DNA of 11,975 nucleotides, taken from contig JBBISM010000064.1 in NCBI GenBank assembly GCA_037441245.1, positions 1 through 11,975 on the forward strand. The letters run 5' to 3'. Below, in pieces: positions 1 to 11,975 of this stretch (position 1 is the first letter of the stretch; every line of letters begins with the position of its first letter). Source of the stretch: Ignavibacteria bacterium (GTDB lineage Bacteria; Bacteroidota; Ignavibacteria; Kapaibacteriales; UBA2268). The position numbers were made by a program, and so were the translations under genes. The notes under the pieces are model-generated. The model was not told the DNA's origin, did no database searches, and saw only the letters and a program-made list of their open reading frames with translations.

Positions 1-421
1 CAGCGGTAACGTTATGTTCTAGCATAGCTTCGAGAAGTGCTGATTGAGTTTTAGGAGGTGTTCGATTTATTTCATCAGCAAGTACGATATTAGCAAATAT
101 AGGACCTTGGACAAATCGGAATTCCTTTTGACGTGTTGTGATGTTTTCTTCGATAACCTCGGTTCCTGTAATATCGCCCGGCATCAGATCGGGAGTGAAT
201 TGTATTCGTGAAAATTTTAAATTCAATGTTTGGGATAAAGTACGGATAAGTAGGGTCTTGGCTAATCCTGGTACACCGATTAATAAGCAATGCCCATTTG
301 CGAATAAAGCGATTAAAAGTTGTTCTATAATATCTTTTTGCCCGATGATAACCTTGCTAATTTCATTACGGACTTTGTTAATACTTTCGTTTAGAAATTT
401 TAGTTTTTCTGTGTCTTTCAT
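1..421 (-). CDS. MoxR-family AAA+ ATPase (N-terminal ~140 aa; C-terminus lies beyond the left window edge)
   Basis: Not in the ORF track because the frame is still open at position 1. Reverse-strand translation from the ATG at complement(419-421) reads [93 protein letters not shown]...[38 protein letters not shown] with no stop codon. Walker A (GVPGLAKT), FTPDLMP(G/S)DITG and Walker B/sensor ([20 protein letters not shown]) are hallmark MoxR motifs. Confidence 0.75.
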
Positions 422-536
422 TTATGATCCAATGATAAATCCAAAATGTATAATAGTATTTAACATTAACGGTTAAATAGACATTTTAGTAAAACAAAAT
501 GTTGATTATTCTATTCAGAAATTACTATTGGGGTAT

Positions 537-1505
537 CTAATTCTTTTTCTTTCTTATTTTTCGAACGGTTTTCTTTTTCCGCAGTAATTGCGAAAAAGGA
601 TATACTTCAGATAATTCATAATTTTTTTCGGCGAAATGAATCAACAGGTCAGAAGTTTTTTCAATAAGCCAATTGAAGTTATGCTCTAATAAAAGCGATT
701 TGTCGGCATTTGGAGTCATATTAAGAAAATCCATCACAATAGGAATATCATCTTTAACTGCGAATTCGATAGCATTGAAATCAAATCCGAGAGCTAAACA
801 AATCTTTTTGGCAATATTTTCAATTTTTTTTGTCAATTTACTTTCAATGCTCGGTTCGTCGGGTGAATATCTTAGATGCTGTGGTTTGGTCGGGTCGTAT
901 TTCATAATTTTGACATTCTTTTGCCCGATAACATAGCATTGATAGTAGTTGTCATAGTCAATTGCCTCTTGCAATATCATAATTCTATCGATAGTAAGGT
1001 CATAAGCTGAGAAGAATTCGAGCTTATTATATACTTTAAAGGCTGTGTAAAACCCATTGATTCTGTTCGATTTTAAATAGGCTGGAAACTTAATGTATTC
1101 GAAAATTTCATCCCAATTTAATGGGAAAATTAAGTTTCTCATCGTTTCTGAGCAAGTTCCTGGGGGATGCTCTTTGCTTGGAATGATAACAGTTCTAGGA
1201 ATTTTAATTCCTAATTTGGTTGCTAATGAAGCGTGGAAAAAGTTATCGTCAGCACAAGACCAGAAGGGGTCGTTGATAACTTTTGTTCCATTCAAGGCTG
1301 ATTGTTTGAGTATAGATTTATAGAATGGTACTTCATTGGATACTCGGTCAAAAATAACATCGTATTTTAGGGGTTTATCTATTGTAACGCCGCCAACTTG
1401 AATTAGTTCTGCTTTGATTTCATTATGGCCTAAGTCGTTAATATAGTCAATTAATGCAGGGGGAAAACTTTGCTCCATACCAAAAAAAATTCCGATTGAC
1501 TTCAT
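537..1505 (-). CDS. ATP-grasp fold ligase-like protein (RimK/GshB-like), with a Lys/Arg-rich C-terminal tail
   Basis: 322-aa ORF. NDPFWSCADDNFFHASLATKLGIKIPRTVIIP resembles the ATP-grasp N-lobe segment (RimK: DK...LL...GIP.P.T). A later VMDFLNMTPNA resembles the catalytic E/D-x-N...P segment. C-terminus is LLRKKKTVRKIRKKKN. The family call is tentative, from motif resemblance only. Confidence 0.45.
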   Translation of the reverse strand: MKSIGIFFGMEQSFPPALIDYINDLGHNEIKAELIQVGGVTIDKPLKYDVIFDRVSNEVPFYKSILKQSALNGTKVINDPFWSCADDNFFHASLATKLGIKIPRTVIIPSKEHPPGTCSETMRNLIFPLNWDEIFEYIKFPAYLKSNRINGFYTAFKVYNKLEFFSAYDLTIDRIMILQEAIDYDNYYQCYVIGQKNVKIMKYDPTKPQHLRYSPDEPSIESKLTKKIENIAKKICLALGFDFNAIEFAVKDDIPIVMDFLNMTPNADKSLLLEHNFNWLIEKTSDLLIHFAEKNYELSEVYPFSQLLRKKKTVRKIRKKKN

Positions 1506-1652
1506 AGCTCTTCCTTCCCAATTAAATTGGATTATTTATAATGGTAATTAAATTAAACACAAAAATAAGAAAATCTTATTTCTTATATTATCCTAAACTT
1601 GAAAATAATTATCTTGTTTATATCAAAATTATTTTAAAAAGTATTTTAATTT

Positions 1653-2315
1653 ATGAAATTAACGGAAAAATTATTAATTTCCATACAATTTTATTCAGAC
1701 GCAAAAAATATGTTTGAGATTTATTTAGCTTTTTTAGTTTTTGGCGGATTATTGTTAGCAGGTTCGCTAATATTTGGTAGTGAAAGTCATACTGATGCAG
1801 ATGTTCATAGTGGCGTTGATTTGCATATAAGCGATACTCATCCCGTAGCTGGCGAAACACATTCTATTGAACACTATGCCGAAGGGAAAGGTGTAGTAGA
1901 GGCTATCAAATTTGTATCGTTTAGAAATTTTATCTATTTCTCTACTTTTTTTGGACTGACAGGAACATTACTGACGCTATTTGAAATAGCTCTATTTTTG
2001 TCTCTACCATTATCAATATTGGTTGGTGGTATTTCTGGTTATGCTGGGTACAGATTTATGAAATACTTGAAATCGAGCGAATCAGGGGAGATTATAAGTA
2101 TGACGGATTTAGTTGGTCGAATTGCCGAGGTAACATTAAATGTATTTAATGATAAGCCAGGTAAGGTAAAAATAGAATTTGGGGGAAAGTTTGAAGAATT
2201 TATCGCAATTTTATCTGAAGAATCACAAAAAAATGAATATCTCAAAGGAGAAAAAGTTTTAGTAATTGATATAGCCAATAATAAATTAATAGTTACAGAT
2301 TTCGAAATATTATAA
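1653..2315 (+). CDS. NfeD-like membrane protein (YuaF/YqiJ type, partner of SPFH/flotillin proteins)
   Basis: 220-aa ORF with N-terminal hydrophobic helices (IYLAFLVFGGLLLAGSLIFG; LLTLFEIALFLSLPLSILVGGISGYAGY) and a soluble beta-rich C-terminal domain (GRIAEVTLNVFNDKPGKVKIEFGGKFEEF...GEKVLVIDIANNKLIV) typical of the NfeD OB-fold. Its stop overlaps the AGGGGG RBS of the downstream flotillin gene. The true start may be the internal Met 19 codons downstream (MFEIYLAF...). Confidence 0.65.
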   Translation: MKLTEKLLISIQFYSDAKNMFEIYLAFLVFGGLLLAGSLIFGSESHTDADVHSGVDLHISDTHPVAGETHSIEHYAEGKGVVEAIKFVSFRNFIYFSTFFGLTGTLLTLFEIALFLSLPLSILVGGISGYAGYRFMKYLKSSESGEIISMTDLVGRIAEVTLNVFNDKPGKVKIEFGGKFEEFIAILSEESQKNEYLKGEKVLVIDIANNKLIVTDFEIL

Positions 2316-2323
2316 GGGGGTTT

Positions 2324-3823
2324 ATGTTTGGATTCATTATTCTAATTGCATTCTTAGTAGTTATAGGAATATTTATTGTGATGTTTGCTATAACTCGACT
2401 TTTACTGATAGCACAACCAAACGAGGTAATAATATTATCAGGTCGCCGTCGCAGGCTTCCAAGTGGAGAAGTCGTCGGTTATAGAATTATACGCGGAGGC
2501 AGGGCACTTCGAATACCTTTCATCGAGAAAGCAGCACGTATGTCTCTCGAGACGATACCAATCGAACTGTCGGTTACAAATGCATATTCCAAAGGTGGAA
2601 TACCTTTGAAGGTCGAAGCGATTGCCAATATTAAGATTGATTCTACTGAACCCGCTTTCGGCAATGCTGTTGAACGATTTTTGAATATGAGGAGGGAGCA
2701 AATACATGCCATTGCCAAAGATACACTTGAAGGTAATTTAAGGGGAGTTTTAGCTTCTTTAACACCAGAAGAAGTCAATGAAGATAGATTGAAATTTGCA
2801 GAAGTCTTGATTGATGAAGCTGTAGGCGATCTGAATCAATTAGGTTTGAGGTTAGATATATTGAAAATAACGAATATCTCCGACGAACGAGGCTACCTTG
2901 ATTCGATTGGAAGAATGAAAACTGCTGAATTGCTTGCAAATGCAAAAAAAGTCGAAGCTGAGAAAAAAGCAGAGGCAGAGGAAGCAGAAGCATTAAGCGA
3001 GGAAAGAGCTCAAAAGGCACGCTCGAGAGCTCATCAAGAAATTGAAACTGCTCGTATCAATTCCGAGCAAAATGTATTAATAATAAACGCTAATAAAGAA
3101 GCGGAAACAAAAGAAGCTGAAGCAAATGCTCTCGCTCGTGCAGAAAGAGTAAAAGCTCAATCCAATCAGGATATCAACATTGCCCAAATTGTAGCTCAGC
3201 AGAATGTTAAAATTACCGATACAAAAGCTCAACAGGCTATAGAAATTGAACGGAACAATCTCAGAATCAAGAAAGCTGAATTAGAAAAAGATGCTGTAAT
3301 AAAAGAAAAAGAAGCCGAAGTTGCTGGTAAGAAAGCACAAGTGGTTTTTGAGCAAACACTAGAAGAAGAACGGGTTAAATTGCAGCAAAAGAAATTACTG
3401 GCTGATGTTATCGAGCCAGCAAAAGCAAAAAAAGAAGCTATGGAATTGGAAGCAAAAGGTCATGCCGCATCAATTTTTGCTGATGGCGAGGCAAAAAGAG
3501 CTGTACTCGACCAAATGATTGCTGTTTATAATGCCGCTAAAGGAACGGGCGAAAAAGTCTATATGCTGAATATTTTACCTCAAATTGTTGATTCAATTGT
3601 CAGTACAATCAAACAAATTAAGATTGATAAGTTGACTGTGGTTGATACAGCTGGAATCGCTTCCGATGGTGGCTTAACGAAATTAGTAAATCAATTTCCT
3701 GGATTAGTGACCTCAATAACCGAAATGCTCGAAAATACAACTGGCGTTGACATTTTCAGTCATTTTAAAAAACAGAATACAAGCAAATCAGACGAAGCAG
3801 CAGAACAGTCAAATCAGGAATAA
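2324..3823 (+). CDS. Flotillin-like SPFH/Band-7 protein (FloT/YqiK family)
   Basis: 499 aa. N-terminal TM anchor MFGFIILIAFLVVIGIFIVMFAI, then an SPFH domain (RALRIPFIEKAARMSLETIPIELSVTNAYSKGGIPLKVEAIANIKID), a long Glu/Ala-rich coiled coil (KKVEAEKKAEAEEAEALSEERAQKARSRAHQE...) and a flotillin-type C-terminal region. RBS AGGGGG at 2315-2320, 4 nt before the ATG. Confidence 0.85.
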   Translation: MFGFIILIAFLVVIGIFIVMFAITRLLLIAQPNEVIILSGRRRRLPSGEVVGYRIIRGGRALRIPFIEKAARMSLETIPIELSVTNAYSKGGIPLKVEAIANIKIDSTEPAFGNAVERFLNMRREQIHAIAKDTLEGNLRGVLASLTPEEVNEDRLKFAEVLIDEAVGDLNQLGLRLDILKITNISDERGYLDSIGRMKTAELLANAKKVEAEKKAEAEEAEALSEERAQKARSRAHQEIETARINSEQNVLIINANKEAETKEAEANALARAERVKAQSNQDINIAQIVAQQNVKITDTKAQQAIEIERNNLRIKKAELEKDAVIKEKEAEVAGKKAQVVFEQTLEEERVKLQQKKLLADVIEPAKAKKEAMELEAKGHAASIFADGEAKRAVLDQMIAVYNAAKGTGEKVYMLNILPQIVDSIVSTIKQIKIDKLTVVDTAGIASDGGLTKLVNQFPGLVTSITEMLENTTGVDIFSHFKKQNTSKSDEAAEQSNQE

Positions 3824-3844: not shown

Positions 3845-3880
3845 AGGGCGTATGATTGAACTTCAATACGCCCTTTTTTA
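3845..3880 (+). terminator. Rho-independent terminator of the NfeD-flotillin operon
   Basis: Perfect 9-bp stem AGGGCGTAT (3845-3853) / ATACGCCCT (3866-3874) with a 12-nt loop, followed by TTTTTT (3875-3880), 22 nt after the flotillin stop codon. Confidence 0.75.
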
Positions 3881-4230: not shown

Positions 4231-5454
4231 ATGGCAGTAAAATTAATCAGCCCACACGGAAGCCCAGAATTAATCGAATTGTTACCGAAAGGCGAAGAAT
4301 TAACCCAAGAAAAGAAAAGAGCAGAAAAGATGCTCAAAGTTAATATCACCAGCCGAGAAACCGGGGATTTAATAATGATGGGTATTGGAGGATTTACACC
4401 ACTTACTGGATTTATGGGTTATAATGATTGGAAAAGCGTTTGTTCAGAGATGAAAATGCAGAGCAAAAACGGTCTCTTCTGGCCTATCCCAGTAACAGTA
4501 TCTTGCGACAAAGAAACAGCCGATAGAATTAATATCGGCGATGAAGTCGCTCTTTATTCAGATGAGTACGACGAGATTATGGCAACAATGAAAGTTGAAG
4601 AAAAGTACAAAATTGACAAAGAATTCGAATGCAAACATGTTTATAAAACTGTGGATATGGAGCATCCAGGCGTTATAATGGTAATGGAGCAAGCTGAATA
4701 CAATTTAGCTGGTCCAGTCAAAGTTTTATCGGAAGCTACATTTCCAGTCGAGTTCAAAGATGTTTATCAAAGACCATCAGAGTCGAGAAAAATATTTGCC
4801 GAGAAAGGATGGCGAACAATCGCGGCATTACAGTTACGAAATCCTATGCATAGGAGTCATGAATATTTAGCCAAAATAGCGCTCGAAGTATCCGATGGGT
4901 TATATATTCATCAATTAGTAGGAAAATTAAAACCAGGCGATATTCCCGCTGATGTACGTGTCAGATGTATTGATGTCCTGGTAGAAAGATATTTCGTAAA
5001 GGATACTGTAATTCAAGGTGGTTATCCATTGGATATGAGATATGCTGGACCGAGGGAAGCTCTTTTGCACGCACTTTTCAGACAGAATTTTGGATGCACA
5101 CATATGATTATTGGTCGCGATCACGCAGGAGTCGGTAATTATTATGGTGCATTTGAAGCCCAAGATATTTTCGATGAATTATGGGATGGAGCGCTACTAT
5201 GCAAACCATTGAAAATTGATTGGACATTCTGGTGCAGCAAATGCGAAGGAATGGCTTCAATGAAAACCTGCCCGCATACAAAAGACGACAGACTATTATT
5301 GAGCGGTACTATGTTGAGGAAATCCTTATCCGAGGGAAAAGAAGTTCCCAAAGAATTCAGCCGACCAGAAGTTTTAGAAATTTTGCGAGAATATTACACC
5401 GGTTTAACAGAAAAAGTAGAAGTAAAGTTGCATAAAGCTGCAACAGGCGAGTAG
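4231..5454 (+). CDS. sat: Sulfate adenylyltransferase (ATP sulfurylase), dissimilatory type
   Basis: 407 aa. Contains the canonical ATP-sulfurylase motifs [13 protein letters not shown] (QxRNxxHxxHE) and GRDHAGVG, and the overall length and organisation fit. RBS GGAG is 6 nt upstream of the ATG. Confidence 0.95.
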
Positions 5455-5529
5455 TTTGAATTTTAAAAATACTTTATATAAGTAAAGTACATATTTTAAT
5501 CATTTATTAAACAAATAAGGAGATGTATA

Positions 5530-5970
5530 ATGCCAAGTTTTGTAATTGTAGAAAAGTGTGACGGATGCAAGGCACTTGATAAGACAGCCTGCCAGTACAT
5601 TTGCCCTAATGATCTTATGGTTTTGAACAAAGATCTTATGAAAGCCTACAACATTGAACCAGAAATGTGCTGGGAATGTTACAATTGCGTAAAAATATGC
5701 CCCACACAAGCCATTGAAGTTCGTGGATATGCAGATTTTGTTCCTATGGGAGCGCAAGTAACTCCGATGAGGAGCTCTGACTCAATTATGTGGACAGTTA
5801 AATTCCGCAATGGAACGCTCAAACGATTTAAATTCCCCATCAGATCAACCCCAGAAGGAACAGCAGTGCCCGACGGTGGATGGGAAACCCCAAATGATGA
5901 TTTATCAAGCCCATATTTATTTACTGAACCAGCATCACTTAAATTAGATGATTTGTGGAAAAAACAATAA
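5530..5970 (+). CDS. aprB: Adenylylsulfate (APS) reductase beta subunit, two [4Fe-4S] clusters
   Basis: 146 aa. MPSFVIVEKCDGCK...CQYICPNDLM...CWECYNCVKICPTQAI...MWTVKFRNGTLKRFKFPIRSTPEG is near-identical in pattern to known AprB N-termini and the C-terminal tail. RBS AAGGAG at 5517-5522. Confidence 0.95.
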   Translation: MPSFVIVEKCDGCKALDKTACQYICPNDLMVLNKDLMKAYNIEPEMCWECYNCVKICPTQAIEVRGYADFVPMGAQVTPMRSSDSIMWTVKFRNGTLKRFKFPIRSTPEGTAVPDGGWETPNDDLSSPYLFTEPASLKLDDLWKKQ

Positions 5971-6014
5971 TTGATAATTAAATAGTTAATTTTATAAAAT
6001 AATGGAGATTAATA

Positions 6015-7889
6015 ATGGCAAATTTTGAAACTGTAGAAGTCAATACCGATCTATTGATTATTGGTGGCGGTATGTCTGCTTGCGGTGCAGCTGTCGAAGC
6101 CGTTTACTGGGCAAAAAAGCATAATGTTAAAGTTACTTTGGTTGATAAAGCAGCCGTTGACCGTTCAGGTGCTGTTGCTATGGGTTTATCAGCGATTAAT
6201 CAATATGTTGACCTTACAAGCGGTAATAATACTGTAAAAGACTATGTAGATTATGTTCGAAATGACTTGATGGGTATTACCCGCGAGGATTTAGTTGCGA
6301 ACATAGCTCGCCACGTTGATTCATCAGTTCATCTTTTTGAAAAATGGGGATTGCCAATTTGGAAAGATGAAGAAGGAAACTATGTGCACGAAGGTCGCTG
6401 GCAATTAATGATTAATGGAGAATCATACAAAGTTGTCGTAGCAGAAGCTGCTAAGAATGCTCTCGGTATAGATAATATAATCGAGCGTGTATTTGTTGTC
6501 GAGCCATTGCTTGATGGTGATAAGGTTTCGGGCGCAGTAGGATTCAGTGTTAGAGAGAATAAATTTTATGTATTCAAAGCAAAAGCAGTAATTATTGCAG
6601 CTGGTGGGGCGGTTCACGTATTCAAACCACGTTCATCAGGCGAAGGCTTGGGCCGTGCCTGGTATCCACCGTGGAATTCAGGAACAAGTGCTTACTTCAC
6701 TATCAAAGCAGGAGCTGAAATGACCTGCCAAGAAGTAAGATTCATTCCTGTTAGATTCAAAGATGCTTATGGACCTGTTGGTGCTTGGTTCTTATTATTT
6801 AAATCACGCGCAACATCTGCTCTCGGTGGCGAATATATGGTCGAAAGAAAAGGAGAGCTTGAGAATTGGTTACCTTATGGGAAAGTCAAACCAATTCCAG
6901 CAAATCTTCGCAACTGGCTTGGAATGATGGACGTTATGGAAGGCAAGGGACCGATTTATATGAGAACTGAGGAAGCTATCCAAAAATTGGCTGATGCATA
7001 TAAAGATGACCCAAAGGGATACAAGAAAAAAATGAAAGAACTCGAAGAGGAAGCTTGGGAAGACTTTTTGGATATGACTATCTCGCAAGCAATATTATGG
7101 GCAGCAACTAACATATTCCCCGAAGAACGTGCATCGGAAATAGCAGCAGCCGAACCATACTTTATCGGCTCGCACTCAGGTGCATCTGGTGCTTGGGTTT
7201 CGGGTCCGAAAGATCTTGCACCGCAGGAATATTTCTGGGGATATGCGAATATGACAACAGTAAAAGGATTATTCGCAGTAGGCGATGCTTCTGGCGCATC
7301 AAGTCATAAGTTTTCATCGGGTTCGCACGCCGAAGGTCGTATTGCAGCCAAAGCAGCAATTGAATATATTGTAAAAGAGAATCCGACGCATAAATATATT
7401 GATGCCGAGATTAATGCATTGAAGGAAAAAATTCTTAAGCCACTAGATATTTATGAGCAATACTATAAGGAAACAACTGATCCAGACATCAACCCAAATT
7501 ATATTCGACCGAAGATGTTTATGTTCAGACTGCAAAAAATTATGGACGAATATGCTGGTGGAGTATCATCACAGTTCAAGACAAACAAGCCCTTATTAGA
7601 AAAAGGACTTGAGCTACTTGCATTCCTTAAAGAAGACTCAGAACTTTTAGCAGCAGCCGATTTGCATGAACTAATGAGATGCTGGGAGAATGTCCATAGA
7701 ATGTGGCAAGCAGAAGCACACGTTCGCACTATTCTTTTCAGAGAAGAAACTCGTTGGCCTGGGTATTACTTCAGGGCAGATACACCGAAGATAGACAATG
7801 ACAAATGGGAGAAATTTGTAAATCTTACTTACGACAAGAATACTGATAAGTGGGATGTATTTACAAAAGACATTCTCCACATATTTTAA
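6015..7889 (+). CDS. aprA: Adenylylsulfate (APS) reductase alpha subunit, FAD flavoprotein
   Basis: 624 aa. N-terminal FAD-binding fold DLLIIGGGMSACGAAVEA. Fumarate-reductase/succinate-dehydrogenase-like flavoprotein architecture immediately downstream of aprB. RBS GGAG at 6004-6007. Confidence 0.95.
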   Translation: MANFETVEVNTDLLIIGGGMSACGAAVEAVYWAKKHNVKVTLVDKAAVDRSGAVAMGLSAINQYVDLTSGNNTVKDYVDYVRNDLMGITREDLVANIARHVDSSVHLFEKWGLPIWKDEEGNYVHEGRWQLMINGESYKVVVAEAAKNALGIDNIIERVFVVEPLLDGDKVSGAVGFSVRENKFYVFKAKAVIIAAGGAVHVFKPRSSGEGLGRAWYPPWNSGTSAYFTIKAGAEMTCQEVRFIPVRFKDAYGPVGAWFLLFKSRATSALGGEYMVERKGELENWLPYGKVKPIPANLRNWLGMMDVMEGKGPIYMRTEEAIQKLADAYKDDPKGYKKKMKELEEEAWEDFLDMTISQAILWAATNIFPEERASEIAAAEPYFIGSHSGASGAWVSGPKDLAPQEYFWGYANMTTVKGLFAVGDASGASSHKFSSGSHAEGRIAAKAAIEYIVKENPTHKYIDAEINALKEKILKPLDIYEQYYKETTDPDINPNYIRPKMFMFRLQKIMDEYAGGVSSQFKTNKPLLEKGLELLAFLKEDSELLAAADLHELMRCWENVHRMWQAEAHVRTILFREETRWPGYYFRADTPKIDNDKWEKFVNLTYDKNTDKWDVFTKDILHIF

Positions 7890-7897
7890 TTCCAAAA

Positions 7898-7932
7898 GGC
7901 ACCTGTGGATACAACCACAGGTGCCATTTTTA
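7898..7932 (+). terminator. Strong Rho-independent terminator downstream of aprA
   Basis: Perfect GC-rich 11-bp stem GGCACCTGTGG (7898-7908) / CCACAGGTGCC (7915-7925), 6-nt loop ATACAA, then ATTTTT (7926-7932). Begins 9 nt after the aprA stop codon. Confidence 0.8.
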
Positions 7933-7995
7933 AATATAAAATTTAGAGGCAAAAAGTGCAATTGAGTTTTGTATTTAATTATGAAAGGATAATAA

Positions 7996-8256
7996 ATGGA
8001 AAAAATACATTGCAAATACTGCGGTTCAGAAATGCAAAGAATAAATTTACCCCAGGATACAGATTTTAATTGCGAATATTTATATGTATGCTTCAATGAT
8101 GAATGCGGATACTATGTCCGAGGATGGGAATGGATGCGAACTAACTATAATGTTACAGCATCTTATAGGTATAAGTATAATCCATTTTTTGGTGATGACG
8201 GACCAATACCCGTATCATCACCATATACTTGGAAAGATATGATAGCAAAAACTTAG
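7996..8256 (+). CDS. Small Cys-containing zinc-ribbon-like protein (hypothetical)
   Basis: 86 aa. The Cys pairs CKYCGSEM (CxxC) and CFNDEC (CxxxxC) lie ~22 residues apart, suggesting a Zn ribbon or rubredoxin-like knuckle. RBS AAAGGA before the ATG. First gene after the aprA terminator, followed by the next gene after 18 bp. Confidence 0.5.
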   Translation: MEKIHCKYCGSEMQRINLPQDTDFNCEYLYVCFNDECGYYVRGWEWMRTNYNVTASYRYKYNPFFGDDGPIPVSSPYTWKDMIAKT

Positions 8257-8274
8257 TTATCAAAAGGTTAAACG

Positions 8275-9069
8275 ATGAATAATATTGATAAAATTAACAA
8301 AACAATTATAAAAGAATATCCGAGATTAGACGAGGATGCAAAATTCGATTTCAAGTGCCATAGCGGATTAAGCTGTTTCAACAAGTGCTGTAACGATGTT
8401 AATATTTTCTTGACACCTTATGATATCATTAGATTGAAAAATAGGTTGGGAATAAGCTCGAGCGAGTTTTTAGAAAAATATACGATAATTCCTATCGAAG
8501 AAAATTTAAAGCATCCAATAGTTATATTGAAAATGAACAGCGAAACATTAGATTGCCCCTTGTTAAGTATAGATGGTTGCACTGTGTATGTTGATAGGCC
8601 TTGGTCTTGCAGGATGTATCCACTTGGAATGGCTTCACCTTCGGAAAGCATAAGCAACGAACAAGAAGAATTTTACTTTTTATTGAAAGAACCCATTTGC
8701 CAGGGATTCACTGAAAATAAAGAATGGACTATCTTGGAATGGAAAGATAATCAAGGTGTCAATGAATATACCGAATTGGGCGAGATGTTTAAAGAAATTT
8801 CTTGCAATGACCACTTTGTGAAAGGCAAAATCACCGAGCCGGTCAAATTGGAAATGTTTTATATGGTTTGCTACGATATTGATAAGTTTAGGGAATTTCT
8901 CTATAGGAGCTCTTTTTTCAAGCGATTTGCAGTAGAAGATGAATTAATTAATAAGATGAGAACAGATGATGTCGAATTATTAACATTCGGCTTCAAATGG
9001 CTTAAATATAGCTTATTTGGAGAGCCAACCCTTAATTTGAAACAAGAATATATGAAACCTATTTTATAG
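8275..9069 (+). CDS. YkgJ/UPF0153-family protein (Pfam 'CxxCxxCC' putative Fe/Zn-chelating domain)
   Basis: 264 aa. N-terminal Cys cluster FKCHSGLSCFNKCCNDV. Central CPLLSIDGCTVYVDRPWSCRMYP matches the family signature C-x7-C-x-Y-x2-RP-x2-CR-x-YP. Variant spacing in the first cluster (C-x5-C-x3-CC). Confidence 0.6.
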   Translation: MNNIDKINKTIIKEYPRLDEDAKFDFKCHSGLSCFNKCCNDVNIFLTPYDIIRLKNRLGISSSEFLEKYTIIPIEENLKHPIVILKMNSETLDCPLLSIDGCTVYVDRPWSCRMYPLGMASPSESISNEQEEFYFLLKEPICQGFTENKEWTILEWKDNQGVNEYTELGEMFKEISCNDHFVKGKITEPVKLEMFYMVCYDIDKFREFLYRSSFFKRFAVEDELINKMRTDDVELLTFGFKWLKYSLFGEPTLNLKQEYMKPIL

Positions 9070-9107
9070 TTCAATTGGAGTATAGTGAATAATTAGAAGG
9101 AAATAAG

Positions 9108-10376
9108 TTGAACAACGGGAAACAATTAAATAGTGATATTGAATTCATTCGCCACTTAAAAAAGTATGGTGGCGATACAATGAAAAAATGCTTTCAATGT
9201 GCTACCTGCTCGGTAGTTTGTTCGCTATCACCCGTAGAAAATGCATTTCCCAGAAAAGAAATGATAAAAGCAGGATGGGGATTGAAAAATGAACTGGTTA
9301 ATGATCCAGATATTTGGCTTTGCCATGGATGTATGGATTGCAGTCAGATGTGCCCGCGTGGAGCAAGACCAGCTGATCTAATGGGCGCTATAAGAAGCTA
9401 CATCTATCGTTTTTATTCTACTCCGAAATTTATGGGGAAAGCACTATCGGAACCAAAATATTTACCTTATTTATTGATACTACCGACAATATTAATATTC
9501 ATATTGCTATTAGTAACTCAAGGGGGAAATCTATCTGCTATTGATTGGTCTGTTCATCAGTTTAAGTATAAAGATTTTATAGCTCACGGACCAATTGAGG
9601 TTCTTTTCATTTTTGGAAATATACTAGTATTTGCATTCGCATATATAGGGTTCAAAAGATATTGGGATGACTTACATCAACATAATAATTATCAACCAGT
9701 TCAGGGTTTAATTCCATCATTCATTCAAGTAATAAAAGAACTTGCCTTGCACAAAAAATTTGATAAATGCCCAACAAATTCAGCACGTTATTATGGGCAT
9801 TTATTTATTTTTTATGGATTTGTAGGAGCTTTGATAGCCACAGCTATAGTTGTAGCAAATATATTTGGGGATAAGCTTGGCTTATTCAATGAATTTTTGC
9901 CAGAGCATATGAATATGCCACTATATTTATTGGGGGGCGTGAACTTCGATGACCCAAATGAAGTGATTGAATTGATTGGGCTTATAGTGAAAAGCTTTGG
10001 TTTATTGGCAGGAACATTACTGGTTATCGGTGGGTTGTTATTGTTAGTTAAACGGCAAGTTACCGAAGACCGAGAAGGGAAATCCACCTATTATGATATG
10101 CTATTTTTGTGGATTCTTTGGGGAGTGTCGTTTACTGGAATGTGCTGTGTATTTCTTCGACTGCTTGAAGTACCAATTATTGCTTATCCAACGTATTTCG
10201 TGCATTTAGTATTAGTATATTGCTTGCTTTGGTATATGCCTTATTCAAAATTTGCACATATGATATATAGATTTATGGGATTAACCTATTTGAAGATGTA
10301 TGGTAGGGATGCAAAGATTGAAATTTTCGATAAAAACTTAAAAATAAATAAAGTTACACAACAAGTAACAGTATAG
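9108..10376 (+). CDS. QmoC-like protein: an HdrC-like 2x[4Fe-4S] domain fused to an HdrE/NarI-like di-heme cytochrome b membrane domain
   Basis: The ORF track starts at TTG 9108, preceded by AAGGA at 9097-9101. An in-frame ATG at 9180 is an alternative start. Two ferredoxin motifs with the long HdrC-type spacer: [12 protein letters not shown] ... ~33 aa ... [12 protein letters not shown]. About six predicted TM helices follow ([109 protein letters not shown]). Conserved His residues (AHGP, YYGHLF, FVHLV, FAHMIY) are positioned like heme-b ligands. No CCG motif, so not DsrK/HdrD. Confidence 0.6.
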
Positions 10377-10404
10377 AAATTCTAAACTTATTACAGGAGT
10401 AGAA

Positions 10405-11607
10405 ATGGTAAATAGAAAATTTGAAACTCCATTACTCGACCAGCTTGAGAGCGGAGAGTGGCCAAGTTTCGTTACAGAAATTAAAATGGCTGCTGAAACT
10501 AACCAAATGGCAAATAGTTTACTCGGTTTGCTCGAGCAATCATACGAGGAAAAAATTGGTCACTGGAAGCATGGAGGGATTGTAGGTGTTATGGGATATG
10601 GTGGGGGTGTCATTGGTAGATATACAGACTTACCCGAGAAATATCCTGATATTTCGCATTTCCATACGATGAGAATTAACCAACCAGCAGGTTGGTTCTA
10701 CACAGCTGAAGCCTTGAAGCAAATATGTGATGTTTGGGACCGATATGGCTCGGGATTAACAAATATGCACGGTTCGACGGGAGATATTATATTGCTAGGA
10801 ACAAGAACAGAAAATTTAGAACCAACATTCAATGAGCTAACGCATTTAGGATTTGATTTGGGGGGGTCGGGCTCTGCAGTTCGCACTCCTAGCTGTTGCT
10901 GCGGAATGGCAAGATGCGAATGGGCTTGCTATGATACAATGGCTTTGACATATTATATAACAATGCGTTATCAAGATGAACTACATAGGCCAGCATTCCC
11001 TTATAAGATGAAATTTAAAATGTCGGGTTGCCCAAATGATTGTGTAGCATCGGTCGCAAGAGCAGATATATCAATCATTGGTACCTGGCGAGATGAAATT
11101 CAAATCAATCAGGAGGAAGTAAAGAAGTATCAAGATAATGGGACAAATATTTTTAAAGAAGTTGTATTGAACTGCCCAGCTAAATGTATTGATTGGGATG
11201 GCAATGAGATTAAGATAGACAATTCGAATTGTCGCCATTGTATGCATTGTATTAATGTATTACCTAAAGCATTAGCACCTGGAAAGGATAGAGGAGCAGC
11301 GATACTTATCGGCTCGAAAGCCCCAATTATCGAGGGCGCATTGTTATCATCAGTATTTGTACCATTCATCGAAATCGAAGAACCCTATGATGATTTAGAG
11401 CTATGGGAATTAATTGACAATATGTTCGACTTATGGTGCGAAGAAGGTAAGAACCGAGAAAGAATAGGCGAATTTATTCAAAGAGTAGGATTGGGCAATT
11501 TCATTGAAGCAGTCGGATTGCCACCGATGCCAGAAATGATTGCATTCCCGAGAGAAAATCCGTATATCTTCTACGAAAGCTTTTTCGAAGAAGAAGTGGA
11601 AGAATAA
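10405..11607 (+). CDS. dsrA: Dissimilatory sulfite reductase alpha subunit
   Basis: 400 aa. N-terminus ...[19 protein letters not shown] and internal [35 protein letters not shown], siroheme/[4Fe-4S] Cys cluster [32 protein letters not shown], and ferredoxin insert [28 protein letters not shown] are collinear with characterised DsrA proteins. RBS AGGAG at 10395-10399. Only 28 bp after the preceding gene. Confidence 0.95.
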
Positions 11608-11656
11608 AAATAATTGTTTATCATAATTAAGTTAAATAAATTGAAGGAAATAAAAA

Positions 11657-11975
11657 ATGTCAGATCAAGCACCAGAGAGATTAACTGATATTGGCCCACC
11701 GCATTACACAAAATATTTGCCACCAATTATTAAAGAGAATTACGGTCAATGGAAATATCACGAAATACCGAAACCAGGCGTTTTGGTTCATACAGCTGAA
11801 TCGGGGGCTAAATTGTATTCAGTTAGAGCAGCAAGTCCAAGATTATTAAGCACTAATAAAATCAGAATGTTCGCTGAATTAGCTGAAAAATATTGCGATG
11901 GATATTTACGCTTTACTTCACGAAACAATGTAGAATTTTTATTGACAGATCCCAACAATATTGACCCATTGATAG
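11657..11975 (+). CDS. dsrB: Dissimilatory sulfite reductase beta subunit (first 106 aa; continues beyond the right window edge)
   Basis: Open frame from ATG 11657 (RBS AAGGA 11643-11647): MSDQAPERLTDIGPPHYTKYLPPIIKENYGQWKYHEIPKPGVLVHTAESGAKLYSVRAASPRLLSTNKIRMFAELAEKYCDGYLRFTSRNNVEFLL. Matches the conserved DsrB N-terminal region (DIGP...WKYHEI.PGVL.H.AESG...RFT.R.N.EF). Confidence 0.9.
   Translation, partial: MSDQAPERLTDIGPPHYTKYLPPIIKENYGQWKYHEIPKPGVLVHTAESGAKLYSVRAASPRLLSTNKIRMFAELAEKYCDGYLRFTSRNNVEFLLTDPNNIDPLI

Follow-up and report, generated by a model that had tools for sequence, protein, structure and literature searches.

The loci of Desulfovibrio and Desulfobacterium hold sat and aprBA-qmoABC in one place and keep dsrAB(D) and dsrMKJOP apart, and the separation of dsrAB from sat/aprBA-qmo in classical sulfate reducers, against which the original prediction for the present DNA had been framed, is supported by the literature (PMC2702500). 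The green sulfur bacterium Chlorobaculum has the order sat-aprBA-qmoABC. On Wadden Sea fosmids from uncultured bacteria, the sat, apr and dsr genes have been described as lying close together (Mussmann et al. 2005, J Bacteriol 187:7126, as relayed in PMC2702500 and PMC6338057), and in these secondary accounts the clustering is read either as a 'metabolic island' or as a conserved progenitor; the fosmid DsrAB are 73-75% identical to those of Kapabacteria (Thiel et al. 2019 Table 4, PMC6338057). The closest described system is the order sat-aprBA-hyp-hyp-qmoC-dsrAB-dsrD-dsrN-hyp-dsrL-dsrC-dsrM2-dsrK2, reported for 'Ca. Thermonerobacter thiotrophicus' and related Kapabacteria MAGs (OPB56 / GTDB family UBA2268), with qmoAB and dsrTMKJOP elsewhere in the genomes and with cluster transcripts that co-vary in situ (Thiel et al. 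2019, PMC6338057).

The window, that is, the whole stretch of 11,975 nucleotides analysed here, carries this same arrangement, which is the lineage-typical Kapabacteria 'supercluster' published in 2019, the idea of clustered genes or a metabolic island dating from 2005. Taking all parts of the explanation together, we are confident that the locus represents a chromosomal dissimilatory sulfate-reduction 'supercluster' of uncultured Kapabacteria (Bacteroidota/FCB), lineage-typical in its arrangement and most likely operating in the reductive direction.

Gene content and order of the cluster

Open reading frames and family scores placed sat, aprB, aprA, a three-gene module, dsrA and the start of dsrB on the plus strand of the window, confirming the predicted contiguous, single-strand run of sat, aprB, aprA, dsrA and dsrB. 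Assignments were judged against curated NCBIfam cutoffs, all of which were exceeded by sat, aprB, aprA, qmoC and dsrA. The features are as follows:

3846..3879, plus strand: terminator-like hairpin, GGGCGTAT...ATACGCCC then T6, after a flotillin-like gene (read directly from the sequence)
4231..5454, plus strand: sat, sulfate adenylyltransferase (ATP sulfurylase), 407 aa; NCBIfam NF003166, 515 bits (cutoff 387); Pfam PUA_2 and ATP-sulfurylase
5530..5970, plus strand: aprB, APS reductase beta subunit, 146 aa; TIGR02060, 202.5 bits (cutoff 135.65); Pfam APS-reductase_C
6015..7889, plus strand: aprA, APS reductase alpha subunit (flavoprotein), 624 aa; TIGR02061, 912.8 bits (cutoff 641.75)
7898..7931, plus strand: GC-rich 11-bp hairpin with a U-tract, 9 nt past the aprA stop codon (terminator scan match)
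7996-10376, plus strand: three-gene module znf86-ykgJ-qmoC, between aprA and dsrA
7996..8256, plus strand: znf86, soluble four-Cys zinc-ribbon protein, 86 aa; Pfam Ogr_Delta (PF04606), 34.2 bits (gathering threshold 26.3)
8275..9069, plus strand: ykgJ, soluble YkgJ-family (CxxCxxCC, PF03692/COG0727-type) cysteine-cluster protein, 264 aa; Pfam CxxCxxCC, 35.9 bits (cutoff 23)
9108..10376, plus strand: qmoC, membrane cytochrome b / HdrC-like Fe-S subunit of the Qmo complex, 422 aa, TTG start; NF038018, 397 bits (cutoff 300)
10405..11607, plus strand: dsrA, dissimilatory sulfite reductase alpha subunit, 400 aa; TIGR02064, 554.8 bits (cutoff 392.85)
11657..11975, plus strand: 5' part of dsrB, 106 codons, cut by the window end; at full length on contig CAYMAD010000043.1 360 aa, 504 bits (cutoff 341.5)

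QmoC combines two CxxCxxCxxxC motifs with a multi-helix hydrophobic C-terminal domain, and the best PDB matches of DsrA are the A. fulgidus and Desulfovibrio DsrA (E about 1e-150). From znf86 through ykgJ and qmoC to dsrAB the intergenic gaps are tight, at 18-49 nt.

Contig CAYMAD010000043.1 (L001), a 20.6-kb metagenomic MAG contig at NCBI, is 99.94% identical to the window (7 substitutions, two of them within dsrA) and runs on past its end with dsrB-dsrD-like-dsrN-hyp145-dsrL-dsrC-dsrM-dsrK, so that the whole pathway cluster spans ~15.5 kb on one strand. DsrAB, DsrC and DsrMK are thus all encoded on this contig, and the DsrC C-terminus (...GAC(x10)GCV) has both of its conserved redox cysteines. 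Beyond position 11975, where the original prediction had pointed to dsrC, dsrD and possible mobile-element boundaries, we found dsrC and a gene with weak DsrD-family matches and, over the 19.3 kb of the contig covered, no mobile-element boundary. The latter gene, conserved, 84 aa long and located directly after dsrB in the dsrD position, gave weak, sub-threshold Pfam DsrD matches in 4 of 14 orthologs in a permissive scan (best E 0.012), along with weak winged-helix matches; an hhalign comparison with a D. vulgaris DsrD sequence, useful as a lead only, was likewise weak and sub-threshold, and single-sequence and profile searches found no DsrD match in the PDB. In the literature the gene in this position is named DsrD (Thiel et al. 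2019, PMC6338057; Diao et al. 2023). The contig carries no rRNA or marker genes, and its best-matching loci are labelled Ca. Kapabacteria or Kapaibacterium.

Compared with the canonical loci, the enzyme families and the inferred chemistry are the same and a qmo gene again follows aprBA. However, in the canonical aprBA-qmoABC layout qmoA and qmoB come right after aprA, whereas here aprA is followed by a hairpin, by the two extra cysteine-rich genes znf86 and ykgJ, and only then by qmoC; moreover, dsrAB and most dsr accessory genes adjoin on the same strand. We found no qmoA or qmoB in the window, nor in the 19.3 kb covered of the contig's 20.6 kb, and the GltD-type DsrL was the only HdrA-like ORF on the contig.

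Recurrence and inheritance

Comparing synteny across public genomes, as had been proposed, revealed qmoC followed by dsrA in 17 of 58 informative species-representative loci, among them published MAGs and a closed chromosome; none of these 17 had qmoA or qmoB within 10 kb of the module. MS-B_bin-24 (L035), ChocPot (L010) and the closed 5.46-Mb Kapabacteria chromosome (L061) share the order at 46-87% amino-acid identity. The match to the cluster of Thiel et al. extends to gene order and strand, to the lack of qmoAB in the cluster, to the same two conserved hypothetical genes and to low GC (34-38% in the published MAGs, 36.5% here). Yet the present locus comes from another species or genus, its proteins being 57-87% identical to those of MS-B_bin-24, and its left flank holds moxR and flotillin genes rather than the guanylate kinase of the Thermonerobacter group. 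The nearest public relative is the Kapabacteria MAG N1_Bin_METABAT__253_1 (L021), with proteins 59-95% identical.

The gene order is no undescribed oddity, as the original prediction would have had it, but published and recurrent in 17 species-level genomes. What that prediction had named as its own refutation, a common and already described order, essentially applies, albeit in a lineage that is uncultured rather than well studied. With the order in print for Kapabacteria since 2019 and the island idea since 2005, we rate its novelty as low; as another species-level example, by which a low-GC Kapabacteria MAG joins the putative non-classical sulfate reducers, the locus matters little in itself. 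Part of the arrangement also reaches beyond this type. Ignavibacteria/Kryptoniota-type loci (qmoA-qmoB-sat-aprBA-znf-ykgJ-qmoC) and Zixibacteria-type loci (qmoC(-)|sat-aprBA-znf-ykgJ) have the same sat-aprBA-hairpin-znf-ykgJ core, at identities of 70-89% for Sat and Apr and 40-67% for the zinc-ribbon and YkgJ proteins, but dsr is mostly not adjacent and qmoAB often lie directly upstream of sat; in some of them an H+-pyrophosphatase gene is inserted between aprA and znf.

How the cluster came to be one unit was a second matter on which the original prediction had ventured two suggestions, a compact ancestral arrangement or a laterally mobile island. Across 15 genomes, all 11 genes of the cluster have correlated distance matrices (r=0.95 between AprA and DsrA, Mantel p<=5e-4). 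Composition is as uniform as had been noted at the outset, with GC of 0.32-0.41 and GC3 of 0.22-0.37 in cluster and flank genes alike. The window and its nearest relative have the left flank (moxR, h322, h220, flot) in common, and each subclade tends to keep its own conserved flanks. These observations argue, with considerable assurance within the explanation as a whole, that this Kapabacteria clade has passed the cluster down as a single unit whose genes diverge together. To that extent the ancestral suggestion stands, confined to this clade; the broader progenitor or metabolic-island idea was, according to the account in PMC2702500, already put forward by Mussmann et al. in 2005. A stable, co-inherited apr-dsr fusion in at least 17 species-level genomes supports regarding the fusion as a synapomorphy-like marker for DSR-positive Kapabacteria rather than as a mobile island.

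That the cluster is instead a sulfate-reduction 'metabolic island', whether laterally mobile or of recent acquisition, we regard as improbable. The entire pathway does fit within about 15.5 kb on a single strand, and the idea was raised for DSR gene clusters on environmental fosmids whose DsrAB are among the closest to those of Kapabacteria. However, neither integrase nor transposase genes occur in 19.3 kb of the contig, tRNA and Rfam scans returned nothing, and a repeat search found only chance repeats; with a composition like that of the flanks and no tRNA, integrase or repeat boundary, there is no sign of recent mobility, and the shared flanks and the co-divergence of all cluster genes likewise speak against it. 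Five related loci forming one subclade (L005, L008, L011, L016 and L030) do carry a conserved ORF upstream of sat with an InsA-like zinc ribbon and weak Mutator-transposase matches, which leaves room for an ancient transfer of the whole block, either into the FCB group or between its members, as do the rearranged forms of apr-dsr linkage in three Zixibacteria-like loci (L052, L065 and L070) for mobility in general. Still, these ORFs are 52-73% identical to one another, marking them as old orthologs rather than fresh IS copies, and the present contig has none. Equally, an assembly or binning chimera might be suspected from a short 20.6 kb metagenomic source contig, but the ykgJ-qmoC-dsrA junction, with its gaps of <50 nt, recurs in 17 assemblies produced independently by different studies, the closed 5.46-Mb chromosome among them; we accordingly rejected an artefact, whose probability we consider negligible.

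Hairpins and the znf86-YkgJ pair

The hairpin behind the flotillin-like gene, missed by the consensus terminator scan on account of its 12-nt loop, appears from its sequence to delimit the transcription unit of the cluster on the left. It is separated from sat by an AT-rich spacer of about 350 bp, in which transcription probably starts, past the flotillin-gene terminator; a sigma-70 promoter scan showed no enrichment over shuffles, and Bacteroidota promoters are different in any case.

The hairpin behind aprA looks like an intrinsic terminator. The spacer in which it lies (7887-7995) has a folding energy of -39.6 kcal/mol (z=-7.9), and 58 of 59 related loci have a hairpin at this position, with differing sequences and a mean of -25.3 kcal/mol versus -10.9 for shuffles. 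By structure and position, it may serve as a partial terminator or as a 3' mRNA stabiliser that parts sat-aprBA from the downstream genes, and would then probably set sat-aprBA mRNA higher than that of znf-ykgJ-qmoC-dsrAB and what follows. Its conservation in position suggests a shared way of tuning the sat-aprBA transcript against the downstream genes.

The two genes behind this hairpin correspond to those that Thiel et al. 2019 (PMC6338057) show as 'conserved hypothetical', znf86 being the first and ykgJ the second. Four cysteines (C6, C9, C32 and C37) are invariant in znf86, alongside a conserved GWxWM...SYR motif. The YkgJ-like protein has eight in the alignment (C28, C34, C38, C39, C94, C102, C112 and C142), the family motif C..(7)..C..YxxRPxxCRxxP and a C-terminal helical domain; its AF2 model (pLDDT 75) found no match in the PDB by fold, nor did its sequence. 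It has 3512 homologs and occurs in at least 554 species genomes, and searches of the sulfur-metabolism literature for YkgJ, CxxCxxCC or COG0727 returned nothing relevant. In 62 of 65 loci from Kapabacteria, Ignavibacteria, Zixibacteria and Kryptoniota, aprA lies directly upstream of the znf-ykgJ pair, neither member of which has a relative of solved structure. Judged by this linkage, the pair is part of the apr locus, not of the dsr locus, and that it stays beside aprA while qmo and dsr change places fits a subunit or maturation factor better.

A regulatory role has its own arguments: znf86 and YkgJ might act as redox- or metal-sensing regulators (an Ogr/Delta-like activator with a Cys-cluster sensor) of the sulfate-reduction genes in facultative organisms. 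The Pfam family matched by znf86 comprises phage transcription activators, Kapabacteria also possess cytochrome oxidase and would have to change between modes of respiration, and the pair heads the downstream gene block just past a terminator-like hairpin; in two loci (L072 and L079) it adjoins genes for toast-rack proteins and an ECF sigma factor, and apr is absent from the neighbourhood. Yet the confident predicted model of znf86 resembled no solved DNA-binding protein in a fold search, neither a Pfam scan nor the AF2 model revealed a recognisable DNA-binding domain in the YkgJ-like protein, and the constant linkage to aprA again points elsewhere, making regulation an unlikely role. As a working view, znf86 and YkgJ could be accessory to the APS reductase/Qmo step, as a pair that binds a metal or Fe-S. 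More specifically, and tentatively, they may constitute an unrecognised lineage-wide accessory of APS reductase/Qmo electron transfer, whether as an adaptor or additional redox module linking QmoC/QmoAB with AprBA, or as a dedicated maturation factor. If true, APS reduction in sulfate reducers of the FCB group would rely on a variant machinery. Their place in the apr locus across several FCB lineages already makes the two 'hypothetical' genes concrete candidates for the poorly understood delivery of electrons to APS reductase.

Pathway and direction

While genes, order and conservation were observed directly, the roles that follow draw on the established functions of the families. Sat would convert sulfate to APS, which AprBA would reduce to sulfite with electrons from the menaquinol pool passed through Qmo, QmoC being supplied by this cluster and QmoAB presumably from elsewhere in the genome, as in the relatives studied by Thiel et al. 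DsrAB and DsrC would then reduce sulfite, with DsrMK re-reducing the DsrC trisulfide. DsrN is predicted to amidate sirohaem, and the DsrD-like protein and the DsrL-2-type NAD(P)H oxidoreductase may modulate or feed DsrAB.

The same genes could in principle run in reverse, oxidising sulfide or sulfur to sulfate (rDsr-Apr-Sat) as in the Chlorobia relatives. DsrL, historically a marker of oxidisers, is encoded in the cluster, Sat, AprBA and Qmo are common to oxidisers and reducers, and the lineage is sister to the green sulfur bacteria, the Chlorobia being sulfur oxidisers. Against oxidation, a DsrD-like gene comes right after dsrB, dsrEFH are missing from the cluster and from the rest of contig CAYMAD010000043.1, and transcripts are reported to peak under anoxic conditions; we give this direction little credence. 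The pathway, as read from its gene content, most likely runs reductively, in line with the assignment of Kapabacteria DsrAB to the reductive type (Thiel et al. 2019, PMC6338057; Diao et al. 2023) and with the report that Kapabacteria of UBA2268 combine reductive DsrAB with DsrD and DsrL-2C and that their transcripts support reduction (Diao et al. 2023).

Gene content of the window and its continuation

A six-frame ORF listing combined with profile searches (Pfam, NCBIfam) showed plus-strand genes running without a break between position 4231 and the window end, preceded by four left-flank genes unrelated to sulfate reduction:

Within 1-3823, minus strand: MoxR-type AAA ATPase gene (moxR), cut by the window start
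Within 1-3823: h322, 322-aa ORF with a weak RimK/ATP-grasp match
Within 1-3823: h220, 220-aa membrane protein with hydrophobic segments, no family assigned
Within 1-3823: flotillin/Band-7 gene (flot), 8-nt spaced
4231-5454, plus strand: sat, profile score above the curated cutoff
5530-5970, plus strand: aprB, score above the curated cutoff
6015-7889, plus strand: aprA, score above the curated cutoff
7996-8256, plus strand: znf86, 86-aa ORF, Pfam Ogr/Delta-like zinc finger
8275-9069, plus strand: YkgJ-like 264-aa ORF, Pfam CxxCxxCC (YkgJ family)
9108-10376, plus strand: qmoC, NCBIfam qmoC 397 bits (cutoff 300)
10405-11607, plus strand: dsrA, score above the curated cutoff
From 11657, plus strand: dsrB, 5′ part, running off the window end after 106 codons

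As all the named enzymes scored well above curated family cutoffs, the original prediction that sat, aprB, aprA, dsrA and dsrB lie contiguously on the plus strand was confirmed; neither qmoA nor qmoB was found in the window by these searches. A terminator-like hairpin closes the flotillin-like gene, and an AT-rich spacer of ~350 bp separates it from sat. A second hairpin, of 11 GC-rich base pairs with a U-tract (7898-7931), begins 9 nt past the aprA stop codon; the predicted folding energy of the 109-nt aprA-znf86 spacer is −39.6 kcal/mol (z = −7.9). Among 59 related loci of several FCB lineages (aprA-znf spacers of L002-L081), 58 have a comparably strong hairpin of differing sequence at the matching position (best 45-nt window, mean −25.3 kcal/mol vs −10.9 for shuffles). 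From these predicted folds, the element probably acts as a partial terminator or stabilises the mRNA 3′ end, which would raise the sat-aprBA transcript level above that of the downstream genes.

The window aligned at offset 241 to the 20.6-kb public MAG contig CAYMAD010000043.1 (GCA_964388315.1; here L001), with seven substitutions in 11,975 bases (window positions 21, 2031, 2076, 8373, 10070, 10848 and 11523). Two are silent; of the five missense changes, four are conservative and one replaces Cys by Ser in the 220-aa ORF. L001 was the one public contig with an exact copy of the 264-aa protein, whereas DsrA had no exact match, as the substitutions explain. The window is thus a near-identical variant of this contig, not a verbatim copy. 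Beyond the window end, L001 carries these further genes on the strand of the cluster:

dsrB, full length, 504 bits (cutoff 341.5)
84-aa gene in the dsrD position, downstream of dsrB
dsrN
L001:14770-15207 (outside the window): 145-aa hypothetical gene, between dsrN and dsrL
dsrL, GltD-like Fe-S flavoprotein with a C-terminal ferredoxin domain
dsrC, both C-terminal redox cysteines present
dsrM, NarI-like
dsrK, CCG-type

Nearly the whole core pathway lies in one ~15.5-kb block of L001, with intergenic gaps of 16–140 nt. A search past position 11975 for dsrD and dsrC thus recovered dsrC, while the dsrD position holds a gene only weakly DsrD-like. The 145-aa protein, the "hyp" given by Thiel et al. 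2019 for this position, is soluble and helical, was present in all 15 full clusters (55–86% identity) and gave no Pfam or NCBIfam match; two E..H-containing helices are reminiscent of ferritin-like proteins.

Recurrence and published precedent

The 264-aa protein had 3512 homologs at E ≤ 1e-3, the best 120 of which were 55–100% identical and came from sources named, for example, Ca. Kapabacteria/Kapaibacterium, Ignavibacteria or Bacteroidota. At least 554 genomes (one per GTDB species) encode a relative; we took the best 80 of these loci with 10-kb flanks and used tblastn to locate all 19 proteins of L001 in them. The complete order reappeared in L002, L004, L005, L008, L013, L014, L016, L019, L021, L023, L027, L030, L035 (the published MS-B_bin-24 MAG) and L061 (a closed 5.46-Mb Kapabacteria chromosome), and a partial order in L007, L010 (the published ChocPot MAG), L011 and L015. 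The nearest relative among these 80, the Kapabacteria MAG locus L021, was 59–95% identical per protein and shares the moxR, h322, h220 and flot genes.

This recurrence, including on a closed chromosome, rules out an assembly artefact at the apr-dsr junction, which is genuine and typical of the lineage; ykgJ-qmoC-dsrA was found in 17 of the 58 loci with sufficient downstream sequence. The order published by Thiel et al. 2019 (PMC6338057) for "Ca. Thermonerobacter thiotrophicus" (Kapabacteria) is, gene for gene, that of L001. The arrangement, originally called atypical, is so against classical cultured sulfate reducers, but in its source lineage it had already been described as the norm. The cluster is therefore a further species-level example of a known arrangement.

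Several MAGs with plainly Kapabacteria-like loci (L002, L005, L007, L008, L011, L023, L027 and L030; full cluster, 80–88% AprA identity) carry the record title "uncultured Hyphomicrobiales bacterium", probably because this batch of MAGs was given a wrong taxonomic label.

Pathway direction and inheritance of the cluster

We consider it probable that the pathway runs in the reductive direction, given the gene in the dsrD position, the absence of dsrEFH from L001 in profile searches, and lineage-level evidence: the Kapabacteria family UBA2268 is classified as having reductive DsrAB, DsrD and DsrL-2C, and its in situ transcripts favour sulfate reduction in anoxic conditions (Diao et al. 2023, PMC10591310). 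A closed Kapabacteria genome combines the sulfate-reduction pathway with cytochrome oxidase (Kadnikov et al. 2020). DsrL in L001 is a caveat to the reductive reading. The matches of the 84-aa protein to Pfam DsrD (obtained for 4 of 14 orthologs, the best at E 0.012) and to other winged-helix families were weak, and searches of the PDB found no DsrD.

Clustered sulfate-respiration genes were interpreted by Mussmann et al. 2005, as summarized in PMC2702500, as a "metabolic island" or conserved progenitor, and the DsrAB on their fosmids are listed among the nearest relatives of Kapabacteria DsrAB (PMC6338057). For the present cluster, a compact ancestral or laterally mobile island had been raised as a possibility. 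Over the 19.3 kb of L001 covered, however, scans for tRNAs and Rfam elements and profile searches for integrases and transposases found none, a repeat search gave chance-level repeats only, and GC and GC3 were alike in cluster and flank genes, in line with the uniform composition noted originally. Moreover, when each of the eleven cluster genes was compared pairwise across the 15 loci with a complete set, the resulting distance matrices were strongly correlated (AprA-DsrA r = 0.95, AprA-DsrB 0.91, YkgJ-AprA 0.85; Mantel p ≤ 5e-4), arguing for a single history of the apr genes, the module and the dsr genes. Flanks were kept within subclades and differed between them, which fits a chromosomal locus diverging alongside its hosts. 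The sole hint of mobility, absent from L001, was a ~385-aa ORF (InsA-like zinc ribbon, weak Mutator-transposase match) that precedes sat in a single subclade of Kapabacteria:

L016:3926-5080
L030:4180-5385
L005:1133-2290
L008:123-1286
L011:2867-4009

These copies are 52–73% identical to one another and hence old orthologs, possibly domesticated rather than an active IS. These observations do not support recent mobility of the cluster; it may have entered the FCB group en bloc in the distant past.

The znf86-YkgJ pair

In published descriptions, the Apr-linked pair is mentioned only as "two conserved hypothetical genes" (PMC6338057), and our literature search found no paper linking the YkgJ family to sulfur metabolism. 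Predictions make both proteins soluble. In znf86, four cysteines are invariant (CxxC...CxxxxC) and a GWxWM...SYR segment is conserved. The YkgJ-like protein combines eight invariant cysteines, among them those of the family motif C-x7-C-xYxxRPxxCRxxP, with a C-terminal helical domain.

The two genes adjoin in 76 of 77 informative loci, and aprA is their immediate upstream neighbour in 54 of 65. In eight more (L026, L028, L032, L037, L039, L048, L068 and L078; Ignavibacteria-type), a membrane H+-translocating pyrophosphatase gene intervenes (PF03030, 946 bits; e.g., L028:7547-9667), placing PPi removal beside sulfate activation. Unlike this linkage, qmo and dsr positions vary. The order is qmoA-qmoB-sat-aprBA-znf-ykgJ-qmoC in loci of the Ignavibacteria/Kryptoniota type; in those of the Zixibacteria type, qmoC either lies divergently upstream of sat or opens the order qmoC-qmoA-qmoB-sat-aprBA-znf-ykgJ; and only the Kapabacteria type has dsr fused downstream. 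The pair thus belongs with apr and not with dsr.

Its fixed place after aprA, the cysteine clusters and the tight spacing (18 nt in the window; 8-nt overlap in L006 and L009) lead us to regard it, tentatively, as a putative metal- or Fe-S-binding accessory of the APS-reductase/Qmo step. Rival readings are a redox-sensing regulatory pair, which seems somewhat less likely, and a maturation factor. Three of the 65 loci are exceptions: in L070, sat-aprBA-dsr is inverted beside the pair, and in L072 (9686-10840) and L079 no sat or apr gene lies within 10 kb of the pair, whose neighbours encode an ECF sigma factor and toast-rack (DUF4097/LiaF-like) and bactofilin-like proteins. This last context is the only one that speaks against a strict Apr role.

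In Ignavibacteria-like loci (L017-L062), the slot after ykgJ holds two very different QmoC types, one 70–80% identical to the QmoC of L020 and the other ~30% identical to it and ~43% to that of the window.
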